Source of the DNA: Promethearchaeota archaeon
GTDB lineage: Archaea > Asgardarchaeota > Lokiarchaeia > Sigyniarchaeales > SOKP01
Direction: 5' to 3'
Length of the DNA stretch: 32,000 nucleotides
Assembly: GCA_030606485.1 (NCBI GenBank)
Contig: JAUWGH010000005.1
Coordinates: 180,001-212,000, forward strand
Part shown: piece after piece, positions 3,967 through 8,479 of the stretch
Layout of the letters: the number at the start of each line of letters is the position of its first letter
Position numbering within the stretch: the stretch's first letter is position 1
Program-made: the position numbers and the translations under genes
The notes under the pieces: generated by a model
What the model was told of the DNA's origin: nothing
Databases searched by the model: none
Seen by the model: the letters and a program-made list of their open reading frames with translations, nothing else

Positions 3967-4398
3967 CTAGCGCATAGATTTTTCTCGCTTTCCAGATACT
4001 AAAGCTTCTAAACTTACTCCGTTAACCTTTGTTACTTTCCACCTAACACCAGGTAAATCACCTACTGCCCTTCCCTTTGCACCACCTATGCCCTCTACCA
4101 ATACAGTGTCATGCTCCTGGATGAAGTTAAGCGCACCATCACCCGGAAGAAAACAAGTTATAGTTTTGCCGTTTTTTCTTAATTGGACTCTAAGACATTT
4201 ACGTATTGCACTGTTAGGTTGTTTACTCTCTCTGCCCACCTTCTCAAGCACTATTGCTTCAGCGGCTGGAGCTCCTTGTAATGGATCTGCTTTTTGTTTT
4301 AATTTAAGTTTTTTTCTTTTATATTTTGTCTTACTCCATCTAAATTTTTTCCTATTTCGTTTTAGTGCTTTGGCACTATATAGACCCTTAGGCGGCAT
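3967..4398 (-). CDS. rps12: 30S ribosomal protein S12 (uS12/S23e)
   Basis: [21 protein letters not shown] and [10 protein letters not shown] motifs. Confidence 0.98.
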
Positions 4399-4586: not shown

Positions 4587-5204
4587 ATGAGCAAAACAAA
4601 GAAAAAACCTACAATAAAATTTTTTAATAAATGGGATTTCGATATTGAAATTCATGATTATAGCTTAGAGAGATACATTAATTTAAAGCCAATTATAATA
4701 CCAGATTCTCAAGGTCGCCATACGCACAAAAGATTTTGGAAATCTAATATATCTATTGCAGAACGTTTAATTAATAAACTTCAATCTCCGGGTTATATAA
4801 GTGGAAAAGTAAAGGGCCATAAAAGCTCTTATAATTCAGGTAAAAAAAGTAAACTAATTAAATTGGTTGAGACTGCATTTTCATTAATTGAGTTAAAAAC
4901 TGGTATGAATCCCTTGCAAGTGTTAATTAATGCAATTGAAAATGTTGCCCCTAGAGAGGAAACTACAAAAATAGCAATGGGTGGTATTTCATATGCAAGT
5001 GCTGTTGATATTGCTCCGCAACGTCGAGTAGACCTTGCATTAAAATTACTTGTTCATGCTATGGTTAATATTACTCATGATAATATAATTACAATTGAAG
5101 AAGCCATCGCCCAGGAATTAATAGCGGCTTCAAAAAAAAGTCAAAATTCTAAAGCAATTAAAAGAAAGGACGAAATTGAAAGAATTGCCATTTCTGCTCG
5201 ATAG
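4587..5204 (+). CDS. rps7: 30S ribosomal protein S7 (uS7)
   Basis: NPLQVLINAIENVAPREETT, AVDIAPQRRVDLAL and KDEIERIAISAR motifs. Confidence 0.98.
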   Translation: MSKTKKKPTIKFFNKWDFDIEIHDYSLERYINLKPIIIPDSQGRHTHKRFWKSNISIAERLINKLQSPGYISGKVKGHKSSYNSGKKSKLIKLVETAFSLIELKTGMNPLQVLINAIENVAPREETTKIAMGGISYASAVDIAPQRRVDLALKLLVHAMVNITHDNIITIEEAIAQELIAASKKSQNSKAIKRKDEIERIAISAR

Positions 5205-5379
5205 TTAGAACTTTACTCTTACTATATTTTTCTTAATTATTTACCATATTCTAAAATGATTTTTGTCGGAAGGGATAATGAAAATCCTTACTTTTTCCCA
5301 ATTATATGGTATTAGCAAATTTTATATTTGTATTTGGTTAAATCTAGTTTAAAAAAGAAGAAAAAATTAACACAATAAT

Positions 5380-7509
5380 TTGAATACAAAAGACAGTTCA
5401 AGTAATTTAGAAAAGCATTTGCAAATTATTGGAAAAAATATAAGATTACGAATTCTCAAGATTTTATATGAAATAAACAGCCCAATTCCATTTATGGCTT
5501 TAAAGAGAAGAATTTTAGAAGAAAAAGGGGATAGCAGTAAAATTTCATATCATTTAAACATTCTAAAAGAAAACAATTTCATATTATCAGGAGACGAAGG
5601 TTATTTCTTAACAAAATTGGGTGGGAGAATATTGGAGAAATTATTAGACATAGGAGATATAATTAATGAAGAAAAAAGAAATCTTCAAATCCGAACATCA
5701 AATTATACTTTTGAACTATTTGATTTAAAGAAAATCGTCGAATACTTAATTCGAGAATCAGAGATGCCAGAAAAATTAGCAAGGAAAATTGCAAATGAAG
5801 TAAAGTTAAAGTTATCTAATTCAAAAGTAAATTACTTAACTACTCCTCTAATAAGAGAATATTTAAATGGCATTTTAATTGAAAAGGGTTTTGAGGAATA
5901 TAGACACAAACTTACACGATTAGGCTTACCACCTTTCGAGGTAGAATCCTTAATAAGAAGCCAGCAATTTTCTGATCCTAAAGAATTTTTAAAAAAATTG
6001 GGTAGTGAAGTATCAGAGCAATATCTATTATTAAATTTATTACCACGAGAATTCGCAGATCTCTATCTTTCAGGTCAGATATCGTTATTACATCTAGATT
6101 CTTGGGCTTTACGCCCTTTGTCTATTTCTATTTCTAATTTAGAGAATACAAATAATTTGGATAAAAGTTTTCTAAAAATCGATGAAACTCTTGAAAAAAC
6201 CCAAATAAAATCTTATTTCTCAAATTTTATCTCAATTCTAACTGATATTAAGAAATTTTTTAATGAAGATATTTTGTTAAATAGGTTTAATGAAATATTA
6301 CTTTCAATACTTTCAAGATTTAATCAAAAAGATACTAAAGGTTTATTATTATTCCTTTTAGAACATTTCTTTAAATTAAATTTAAATTTAAATTTAGGAA
6401 AATCTCAAATCAGTTTAGATTTTTCACACGGTTTTTTACGAAAGAGAGAATTTGACCCGAGTCTTATCACAGAATTAGAGATTGATTTGATTGAATCAAT
6501 AAAAATTGATCCATTTCGAAATTTTGTTCATTTAAATCCATTGATGTTATATGATTGTAGTGATATTAATTCTCAAAACTTCAAGGAAAGTGTTCTTACT
6601 CGATTTTTCGATATAATTGATAAATCAAATTTGCTTTTCTATAGAAATCGAGGTTCAAATCCTATAAACAATATATTAACTTCAATAACTCAAGATTTTG
6701 ATTCTATCCATAATTCATTTAACAAAATATTATTGGATAAAATCTTTATAAATTTACCAAAAATTGCATTAGAATCAAAACAAAATGATCAACACTTTCT
6801 AGAATTATTAGATTTAAATATCACAGCGGTATTTGAAATTTTTAAAATAAAACAAGATTTAATAAAAAAATATTTAAATTCATTTCATCATTGGAAGTCT
6901 CTTTCTAGAATTCTCTTTAATAATGAAAATTGTATATTACCAGATCATGTTTTTAAAGCAATCAGTTTTTTTGGTTTAAATGAATCTATTCTATATCATT
7001 GTAATATCGAGCTAGATCGAATTGACCAAAGTCAAGAGTTTGCAAAACAAATTTTAACTACAATTAAAAACAGAATAAATGAAATAAATAATGAACAAAA
7101 TGAATACTTCATTTTCTCCCAGCCTCATATAGGTAATTATCTTATGAATAGATGGAATTTTGAATTTGATAATATTTCTCATAAGTATGATAGTTTCAGT
7201 ACAGAATTCATACGGTTTGAATCAAAATTGAATTTTGAAAAAAAAGTATCATTATTTAAAACATTTCAAAAAATAGTAAATGGGGGCACACTTTTTAACA
7301 TATTGTTACCTGATTCAAAAAATATAGAAGATTTCCATGAAAAAGTAAAATATTTAATTACATATGGGATTCATTATTTTTGTTTTTCATCAAAACAATT
7401 AAATTATTACAATGAATCTATTGACAGAAAAGGTATTCTTATAAGACCAGACACTCAATATATAGATTCTGATTTCTTAAATAAAGAAATTGTAAAGAGA
7501 TATTTATAA
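5380..7509 (+). CDS. ArsR-type winged HTH + ATP-cone + class III ribonucleotide reductase (NrdD)-like barrel, apparently catalytically inactive
   Basis: TTG start. Residues ~10-95 wHTH (IRLRILKIL...KISYHLNILKENNFI...GYFLTKLG); ~102-175 ATP cone (QIRTS...FDLKKIVEYLIRE...LTTPLIREYLNGILIEKGFEEYR). NrdD-like segments LTRLGLP, ADLYLSGQI and INLPKIALES follow. No RxxGY glycyl-radical motif. Confidence 0.8.
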   Translation: MNTKDSSSNLEKHLQIIGKNIRLRILKILYEINSPIPFMALKRRILEEKGDSSKISYHLNILKENNFILSGDEGYFLTKLGGRILEKLLDIGDIINEEKRNLQIRTSNYTFELFDLKKIVEYLIRESEMPEKLARKIANEVKLKLSNSKVNYLTTPLIREYLNGILIEKGFEEYRHKLTRLGLPPFEVESLIRSQQFSDPKEFLKKLGSEVSEQYLLLNLLPREFADLYLSGQISLLHLDSWALRPLSISISNLENTNNLDKSFLKIDETLEKTQIKSYFSNFISILTDIKKFFNEDILLNRFNEILLSILSRFNQKDTKGLLLFLLEHFFKLNLNLNLGKSQISLDFSHGFLRKREFDPSLITELEIDLIESIKIDPFRNFVHLNPLMLYDCSDINSQNFKESVLTRFFDIIDKSNLLFYRNRGSNPINNILTSITQDFDSIHNSFNKILLDKIFINLPKIALESKQNDQHFLELLDLNITAVFEIFKIKQDLIKKYLNSFHHWKSLSRILFNNENCILPDHVFKAISFFGLNESILYHCNIELDRIDQSQEFAKQILTTIKNRINEINNEQNEYFIFSQPHIGNYLMNRWNFEFDNISHKYDSFSTEFIRFESKLNFEKKVSLFKTFQKIVNGGTLFNILLPDSKNIEDFHEKVKYLITYGIHYFCFSSKQLNYYNESIDRKGILIRPDTQYIDSDFLNKEIVKRYL

Positions 7510-7546: not shown

Positions 7547-8479
7547 CTATACAAAATTATTTCCTTTTAATACTAATGCAAGCAGTGCCATTCTTAGATA
7601 AAGTCCATATTTCATCTGTTTAAAATAAATTGCTTTAGGAGATTTGTCAATATCGGGAGATATTTCACCTACTCTTGGTAAAGGATGCATTAGACGAAAA
7701 TTCTCTTTTGTATTATCTAAATCCTTCTTAGTTAGAACATATACATCTTTAACTTTTTCATATTCTTCTGGTTCTAAAAAACGTTCTTCTTGAATTCGTG
7801 TCATATACAAAATGTCTAATATTGGTAACATCTCCTTAAATTTTTCAGTTTCTTTAAATTTCATCTTTTTGTCATATAGCCAGTCAGTAATTCTAAATCG
7901 CATTTTCAATGAAGCAGGAGATATTAAATATAAATTTATATTATAATTACTAAAAAGATAGGCTAGCGAATGAACTGTCCGGCCATATTTTAAATCACCA
8001 CAGAGTCCAATATTTAGTCCATCAATGGTCCCACATTCTTCTTTGATTGTAAATAAATCTAATAACGCCTGTGTAGGGTGTTCTGCGCTTCCTGATCCAC
8101 CATTAATAATCGGAATTGACGAAAATTTGGCTGCCATACGTGCTACACCTTCCAAAGGATGACGTATTACAATAATATCTGAATAATTTTCAACTGTCCT
8201 AATTGTATCTGCAATAGATTCTCCCTTTTTAACTGATGAGACATCTCGAGTTTGAAATCCAATAACTTTTCCTCCTAATCTAAGCATTGCAGATTCAAAA
8301 CTTAATCTTGTTCTGGTTGAAGGTTCAAAAAATAAAGCAGCCATTATTTTATTATCTAATAATTTAGAATATTTATTATTTACCATCTTTTTACCGATTT
8401 CCAGAATAAAATCAATTTCTTCCCTAGTAAAATCTCTTGCACTTAATATATGCTGGTTTTTAAAATCCCTCATTATCAT
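7547..8479 (-). CDS. pyrB: Aspartate carbamoyltransferase catalytic subunit
   Basis: FFEPSTRTRLSFE, HPTQALLD and MHPLPR motifs. Confidence 0.98.
   Translation of the reverse strand: MIMRDFKNQHILSARDFTREEIDFILEIGKKMVNNKYSKLLDNKIMAALFFEPSTRTRLSFESAMLRLGGKVIGFQTRDVSSVKKGESIADTIRTVENYSDIIVIRHPLEGVARMAAKFSSIPIINGGSGSAEHPTQALLDLFTIKEECGTIDGLNIGLCGDLKYGRTVHSLAYLFSNYNINLYLISPASLKMRFRITDWLYDKKMKFKETEKFKEMLPILDILYMTRIQEERFLEPEEYEKVKDVYVLTKKDLDNTKENFRLMHPLPRVGEISPDIDKSPKAIYFKQMKYGLYLRMALLALVLKGNNFV

Follow-up and report, generated by a model that had tools for sequence, protein, structure and literature searches.

A winged helix and ATP-cone on a catalytically dead class III ribonucleotide reductase: a probable nucleotide-metabolism regulator of Asgard archaea that databases label as an enzyme

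NrdR, the bacterial repressor of ribonucleotide reductase (RNR) genes, joins a DNA-binding module to an ATP-cone, and PyrR, the bacterial regulator of the pyr operon, is derived from uracil phosphoribosyltransferase, binds RNA and keeps residual enzyme activity. To our knowledge, archaea are without NrdR, and little has been reported on how they control transcription of their nucleotide-precursor genes. Here we describe a gene of an Asgard archaeon (Promethearchaeota archaeon, contig JAUWGH010000005.1) that can be compared with both regulators. It occupies positions 5380-7509 (+) of a 32,000-nucleotide stretch, called the window below, and is a single open frame of 709 amino acids with a TTG start and a TAA stop. 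Its product consists of a winged helix-turn-helix (wHTH) domain, an ATP-cone and a body with the fold of class III RNR (NrdD), in that order. It is probably an undescribed regulator of nucleotide metabolism mislabelled as an enzyme: the NCBI and JGI pipelines name many members of its family “anaerobic ribonucleoside-triphosphate reductase.” Literature searches, one of which returned papers on the NrdD enzyme only, found none describing a family with a wHTH, a cone and a dead NrdD; the systematic linkage to pyrB, the per-domain selection analysis and the tree presented here are new.

The protein is built on the same idea as NrdR, a DNA-binding module coupled to an ATP-cone, and NrdR itself is absent from this genome (no TIGR00244 match), which leaves its niche open. 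In NrdR, however, the DNA-binding module is a zinc ribbon, whereas here it is a wHTH, followed by a dead enzyme body of about 530 residues; the cone lacks the canonical Lys-Arg pair, the protein has no match to TIGR00244, and the conserved neighbor is pyrB rather than an nrd gene. The likeness to PyrR is that the fold of a nucleotide-metabolism enzyme is re-used as a regulator linked to pyrimidine biosynthesis genes. Unlike PyrR, this protein has a wHTH of predicted DNA-binding type, an unrelated fold and no catalytic residues. The parts of the gene are as follows.

5380..7509, + strand: whole gene, wHTH, ATP-cone and catalytically dead NrdD body (open reading frame, Pfam, architecture of homologues)
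5419..5637, + strand: wHTH, ArsR/HxlR-like, residues 14-86, then a long helix at residues 79-99 (Pfam DUF7347, AlphaFold2, Foldseek)
5686..5901, + strand: ATP-cone, non-canonical, residues 103-174 (Pfam, invariant columns)
5902..6129, + strand: post-cone linker and first NrdD helices, residues 175-250 (alignment with the genome's own NrdD)
6130..7395, + strand: NrdD-derived alpha/beta-barrel body, residues 251-672, with the Pfam NRDD part at nucleotides 6745-7395 (AlphaFold2, Foldseek, phmmer)
6649..6714, + strand: remnant of the finger (thiyl-radical) loop, residues ~424-445, directly before the INLPKIA strand (alignment)
7396..7506, + strand: Cys-free C-terminal tail, subclade-specific, residues 673-709, in place of the zinc ribbon and glycyl-radical domain (alignment, pLDDT, dN/dS)

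Three Pfam domains mark this order: DUF7347, a wHTH (residues 14-86, E 3.8e-10, 40.3 bits against a cut-off of 27.6), ATP-cone (residues 103-174, E 3.3e-6, 28.0 bits against 25.8; 32.3 bits at genome level) and NRDD (residues 456-672, E 3.9e-20, 72.5 bits against 26.2, covering only profile positions 283-507 of 562). The score against the NCBIfam NrdD equivalog TIGR02487 is 63.7 bits, below the cut-off of 326.35. In sister genera GTG, ATG or TTG starts align with this TTG, and the N-terminus is conserved. An earlier note, made from the sequence alone, had proposed an ArsR-like wHTH fused ahead of an ATP-cone and an NrdD-type body, and Pfam, AlphaFold2 (AF2) and Foldseek bear this out; the segments it quoted (LTRLGLP, ADLYLSGQISLLH and INLPKIALES) are present and align to the genome's own NrdD and to that of T. 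maritima.

The body has the fold of an NrdD. An AF2 model of the full protein, built on a family alignment of 40 sequences, has a pLDDT of 78, and in a Foldseek search against the PDB class III RNR structures take every one of ranks 1-36 (TM up to 0.62; E 1e-15 to 2e-10), with the ten-stranded alpha/beta barrel of the RNR and glycyl-radical-enzyme type; phmmer matches the body to T. maritima NrdD (4coi/4u3e). Homology to NrdDs of the ATP-cone type (P. copri 8p23, S. thermophilus 9dca, T. maritima 4coi/4u3e) runs along cone, linker and barrel. The differences are that this protein carries an extra N-terminal wHTH and is without the finger-loop Cys, the glycyl-radical loop, the zinc ribbon, the NxN flap and the HxH residues.

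The finger loop was compared in an alignment of 222 full-length wHTH-bearing proteins anchored on the genome's own NrdD. The thiyl-radical site of that enzyme, Cys392/393, stands opposite a family-wide gap, and no Cys lies within ±8 columns of the position in any of the 222; N430 is near-invariant in the Cys-free remnant of the loop. The glycyl-radical motif R-x-x-G-[YF] occurs in only 1 of 223 wHTH-bearing proteins. Residues 673-709 of this protein hold no Cys, no RxxGY and no four-Cys zinc site, a site kept in 59 of the 222, which are more distant relatives. Most family members end right after the last barrel strand, and the 37-residue tail found here (pLDDT <50 at residues 675-704; dN/dS about 1 or more, from few sites) appears unconstrained. 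The absences listed in the earlier note, namely the loop Cys before INLP, the C-terminal CxxC zinc site and RxxGY, thus all hold, the catalytic Cys and Gly of NrdD mapping to a gap and to a missing end. Two losses come in addition, both at landmarks defined for P. copri NrdD (PMC11226230): a deletion has removed the NxN substrate flap, and S-L-L stands in place of HxH in the HxHD triphosphate motif. At these sites the genome's own NrdD has NAN and HVH. Conservation in the active-site region is among the lowest in the protein, and model confidence there is low. With all catalytic landmarks lost, the protein cannot be a reductase, and the motif losses together with the Foldseek matches confirm the earlier view of a catalytically dead class III RNR scaffold.

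The N-terminal domain resembles dimeric repressors. Folded alone with AF2 it has a pLDDT of 90.6, and in the model it forms a wHTH fold with recognition helix, wing and C-terminal dimerization helix. Its best structural matches in Foldseek are YodB, HlyU, SqrR, BigR, CzrA, SmtB, QsrR-DNA and NolR-DNA, at TM-scores of 0.66-0.86; the support lies in these scores, as the E-values are weak (2e-3 and above), which is expected at ~100 residues. With the ArsR/SmtB and HxlR/YodB repressors the domain shares the fold a1-a2-a3-aR-b1-b2-a5 and the recognition-helix signature S-x-H-L-x-x-L-K; the helix spans residues ~55-64, with S56, H58, L59 and K63 near-invariant. The metal- and thiol-sensing sites of those repressors are missing, in contrast, and the sensor here would be the fused cone and NrdD body. 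There is no CxxC zinc ribbon at the N-terminus. Of the Pfam profiles only DUF7347 captures the domain, which scores too low for the cut-offs of HTH_5 and HTH_20; relatives pass HTH_5. By this likeness it is predicted to bind DNA sequence-specifically as a dimer.

Invariant residues of the family concentrate in the cone hairpin (I104-R105-T106-S107-x-Y109-x-x-E112-x-F114, all invariant), the later cone helices (P156, R159, E160) and the linker (R175, H176, T179, R180, G182, P184). Residues 175-250 are the most conserved stretch in common with real NrdD, and the genome's own NrdD is 34% identical over residues 114-248 (cone and linker). Residues 95-260 gave no match in a single-sequence phmmer search against the PDB, and hence no residue-level alignment to solved ATP-cones. 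The region expected to hold the specificity-site hairpin of NrdD is poorly conserved and modeled with low confidence. A stand-alone protein of 145 aa outside the window (L026:980-1417; G000 contig 1, ~207.5 kb; here and below, G, L and f numbers are our handles for genomes, loci and families) combines a cone-like domain with a “TAPLIRE...YTRLGFP” linker, which is characteristic of NrdD and the dead-NrdD family alike. At least five other genomes in the window's family have similar small open reading frames; the 145-aa protein might act as a detached regulatory cone, with either NrdD or the dead copy as its partner.

The family is widespread in Asgard archaea and under selection. A word-indexed search returned more than 294 homologues of common architecture and an exhaustive search 728 representatives at E<=1e-3; all members with a taxonomic assignment come from Asgard archaea (Promethearchaeota/Loki, Hermod, Odin, Hel, Baldr), the closest being Promethearchaeia isolate ABR01 at 90% identity. 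The fusion, for which the earlier note had suggested an Asgard survey, is thus common to hundreds of homologues. A sample of 151 genomes of the phylum included 25 of the window's family besides that of the window itself; 24 of these encode the wHTH-bearing form, and the one that does not is an 89%-complete assembly in 720 contigs. The form also occurs in six further Asgard families and was not found in the remaining families searched. Comparison with two orthologues from the same genus gives dN/dS values of 0.07-0.19 (wHTH), 0.11-0.13 (cone plus linker) and 0.28-0.37 (barrel body, in which D453, D470, K491, F554 and P582 are invariant). Selection is therefore strongest on the wHTH, the cone and the cone-to-barrel linker; the barrel would be retained as a scaffold.

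In a tree of 50 proteins computed without the wHTH (no outgroup from outside the sample, root assumed, many rows of deviant composition), a 100/100 branch separates the 32 proteins that carry a wHTH, without exception, from the 18 that do not, which are true NrdDs and short paralogues. Short basal branches lead to the relatives from families f13, f15, f19 and f21, which keep the zinc ribbon and a shifted R-x-x-G-x-Y loop; the finger loop of f19, readable at two loci, has no Cys. The window's type forms a long derived clade (100/100). Because the less decayed relatives are basal and this clade is long and derived, the tree fits a single fusion followed by stepwise decay, and it supports descent from Asgard NrdDs. 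Elsewhere in the tree, NrdD paralogues of 604-618 aa from two sister genera (L192, G121 contig 95; L193, G132 contig 35), without wHTH, zinc ribbon or Gly motif, are sister to the true NrdD of their family (100/99) and represent a second, independent and more recent truncation of NrdD.

The same genome encodes intact reductases. The earlier note had called for a check for a separate nrdD or nrdJ, and both turned up. A 720-aa NrdD on another contig (491 bits) carries Cys-Cys in its finger loop as well as two CxxC pairs and RVTGY, a bona fide NrdG is present (146 bits), and a class II (B12-type) RNR of 753 aa with an ATP-cone of its own lies at L027:900-3161 (G000 contig 10, ~800.4 kb). Because of these, the organism has no catalytic need for the dead copy. 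The class II enzyme was found through its cone; a genome-level PF02867 search had indicated no class I or II RNR, which was a false negative. That miss is a caution for other presence/absence calls made with the same screen.

The neighbor of the gene that is conserved across lineages is pyrB.

7547..8479, - strand: pyrB, aspartate carbamoyltransferase (ATCase) catalytic chain, convergent (TIGR00670)

In the window 37 bp separate the two stop codons, and pyrB scores 375 bits against the TIGR00670 cut-off of 237; the ornithine carbamoyltransferase model stays below its own cut-off. Among the 80 best Loki-type loci from named genomes, pyrB adjoins the gene in 79, and the exception runs off its contig. 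These loci are interrelated, many with a common S7 ... L44e frame, and do not count as independent; lineages whose other neighbors differ weigh more for the linkage. Their arrangements are given below.

f13: convergent pyrB, 3/3
f15 / Baldrarchaeota: convergent pyrB with pyrI beside it, 3/3
G007 (f9): pyrB then the gene, abutting with no gap; convergent true nrdD
G089 (f2): pyrB first, the gene ~200 bp further on (measured between tblastn hit ends)
Metagenomic contig L072: pyrB first, overlapping the gene by 11 bp
Helarchaeota: gene first, with pyrB 757 bp downstream and carA/carB after it

Five of the neighbors, with each of the four arrangements represented among them, were scored: all pass the equivalog model for PyrB, and all fail the one for ornithine carbamoyltransferase. 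The gene is seldom linked to RNR genes, G007 being the only examined locus with a true nrdD beside the dead copy. That locus (L032, G007 contig 56) is a compact nucleotide-metabolism cluster, and the true NrdD encoded there has 746 aa and RITGY.

We put at roughly even odds the reading that these findings favor: the protein is a pseudo-enzyme that acts as a dimeric, nucleotide-responsive transcription regulator tied to pyrimidine synthesis and is not a straightforward NrdR analogue, a reading in which we infer the DNA binding, the dimeric state, the ligand and the targets. A regulator is suggested because selection on the wHTH and cone exceeds that on the barrel, because the wHTH is repressor-like, and because the scaffold is that of NrdD, which is dimeric in the enzyme; a role in pyrimidine synthesis is suggested by the persistent linkage to pyrB. 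An ancestral Asgard NrdD with an ATP-cone would have gained an N-terminal wHTH of ArsR/HxlR type and lost its thiyl-radical Cys, and the Loki-type branch, including the protein described here, would then have lost the substrate flap, the HxH residues, the zinc ribbon and the glycyl-radical domain. An NrdD-type dimer could offer DNA a pair of winged helices. The variant cone would bind a ligand, most likely an adenine nucleotide or some other nucleotide, which would shift the position of the cone or the oligomeric state, as in real NrdD and NrdR, and so switch DNA binding on or off; the process under control would be the de novo synthesis of pyrimidine nucleotides, perhaps along with the supply of deoxynucleotides. 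More tentatively, the whole course of events might be that an RNR catalytic subunit became a transcription factor that reads nucleotide status with what is left of its allosteric module and adjusts the pace of pyrimidine synthesis through pyrB, perhaps acting on nrd genes as well, with a single early-Asgard origin and stepwise decay. It would then be an archaeal counterpart of NrdR and PyrR together, and the first DNA-binding regulator derived from an RNR.

Several points weigh against a pyrimidine-linked regulator. Both of the binding activities it calls for, to DNA and to a ligand, are inferred. The Pfam score of the cone is marginal (28.0 against 25.8), with the last 13 profile positions unmatched, and the canonical Lys-Arg pair reads T106-S107, after the invariant R105; because of this reading the ligand may be something other than ATP or dATP, or there may be none. 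The canonical cone residues in P. copri NrdD are K7, R8, R87 and R91 (PMC11226230). Since the same position reads Q-S and N-S in the genome's own NrdD and in the stand-alone 145-aa cone protein, the T-S cone may, judging from these sequences, be a lineage-specific variant and not a dead cone. The dominant arrangement of pyrB is convergent, an unusual layout for a regulator and its target, and adjacency within the Loki-type lineages may in part be inherited synteny. In f19 (0/5), f21 (0/2) and one f2 genome pyrB is not adjacent, and the neighbors there are unrelated. Finally, a repeat conserved upstream of the gene in sister genera, described below, turned up in a scan of five genomes neither near pyrB nor on a contig that carries nrdD.

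5205..5379, + strand: upstream intergenic region with TATA-like box and imperfect inverted repeat, a candidate operator only (sequence comparison)

The TATA-like box lies at ~5316-5329, about 55 nt upstream of the start, and the inverted repeat consists of AAGGGAT (5270-5276) and ATCCTT (5284-5289). Sister genera have a conserved tandem ATATYAYC-N3-ATATYAYC about 35 nt upstream of their TATA-like box; the window's own genus is without it, and the inverted repeat sits at the aligned position. The tandem element is 2-3x enriched over a reversed-pattern control in four of five sister genomes and suggests at most autoregulation. No regulon could be defined for it: the other intergenic sites stand beside unrelated genes, for an integrase, Ras-like GTPases, GNAT, a beta-lactamase and a HAD hydrolase. 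Three tandem copies of ATATYAYC at 11-bp spacing also occur in intergenic DNA at L100:1501-1530 (G132 contig 51), upstream of a beta-lactamase-fold gene, and on G121 contig 85:7580-7609.

The earlier note had likened the protein to NrdR, which in its strict form would be a repressor of RNR genes whose cone senses the dATP/ATP ratio and whose wHTH binds operators of nrdD, nrdG and nrdJ. A genome without NrdR but with three cone-bearing RNR-type proteins would accommodate such a factor, and the order pyrB, dead copy, convergent true nrdD in G007 speaks for it. The link to RNR genes that this idea predicts is nevertheless weakened by the conserved linkage: nrdD, nrdG and nrdJ lie on contigs other than that of the dead copy, the adjoining gene in 79 of the 80 Loki-type loci, in f13 and in f15 is pyrB and not nrd, the upstream element is missing from the nrdD-bearing contigs of the five genomes scanned, and the cone lacks the Lys-Arg pair. 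We regard a repressor of RNR genes as unlikely, though it is compatible with a pyrimidine-linked regulator, as one protein could control both nrd and pyr genes.

It is likewise unlikely that the protein works outside transcription, as an allosteric or scaffolding subunit of ATCase or of another nucleotide-synthesis enzyme, with the wHTH serving dimerization or protein contacts. There is precedent in Pseudomonas ATCase, which requires an inactive dihydroorotase-like chain, PyrC'. The 11 bp overlap or zero gap with pyrB in some lineages suggests translational coupling, and pyrI, though present in the window's genome, is unlinked from pyrB. Yet the recognition-helix signature is classic, the best structural matches are DNA-bound repressors and the wHTH is the most strongly selected part, while the commonest arrangement with pyrB is convergent rather than operonic and the genome retains pyrI. 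A predicted complex of PyrB with residues 100-709 scored 0.00 (“no answer”), which weighs neither for nor against binding.

An enzyme with a chemistry that dispenses with thiyl Cys and glycyl radical, to which the moderate purifying selection on the barrel and its five invariant residues might point, is very improbable, since every known substrate-binding and radical element of NrdD is missing, the active-site region is poorly conserved and of low model confidence, and selection is concentrated on the wHTH and cone. A decaying pseudogene, or the frameshift artefact that the earlier note had named as a possible refutation, has nothing but the missing C-terminal domain in its favor and is in effect excluded by 709 open codons, an architecture repeated in hundreds of independent assemblies, an overall dN/dS of ~0.25, relatives that are likewise without an intact C-terminus, and an intact nrdD elsewhere in the genome.

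The mislabelling has practical consequences, as dead copies annotated as reductases can inflate metabolic reconstructions of Asgard archaea, for example where class III RNR capacity is inferred from one of them. As a pyrimidine-linked regulator, the family offers a concrete candidate for the control of archaeal nucleotide-precursor genes, with a pyrB/pyrimidine hypothesis that can be checked. It also provides an example of stepwise conversion of an enzyme to a regulator in which active enzyme, zinc-ribbon-keeping intermediates and fully stripped forms coexist in one phylum.

The wider neighborhood, described in the earlier note as one of transcription, translation and replication genes, is conserved within the Loki-type family but not beyond it. 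In the window, rps12 (3967-4398, -) is on the opposite strand to rps7 (4587-5204, +), whereas the two are co-directional and adjacent in the related loci L028 and L072, which looks like a local inversion in this genus. A typical Loki-type member at 37% identity, followed downstream by pyrB, occurs at locus L156 (DATKTW010000033.1) on a contig titled “Candidatus Nanopelagicaceae bacterium,” which is probably mis-binned Asgard DNA.

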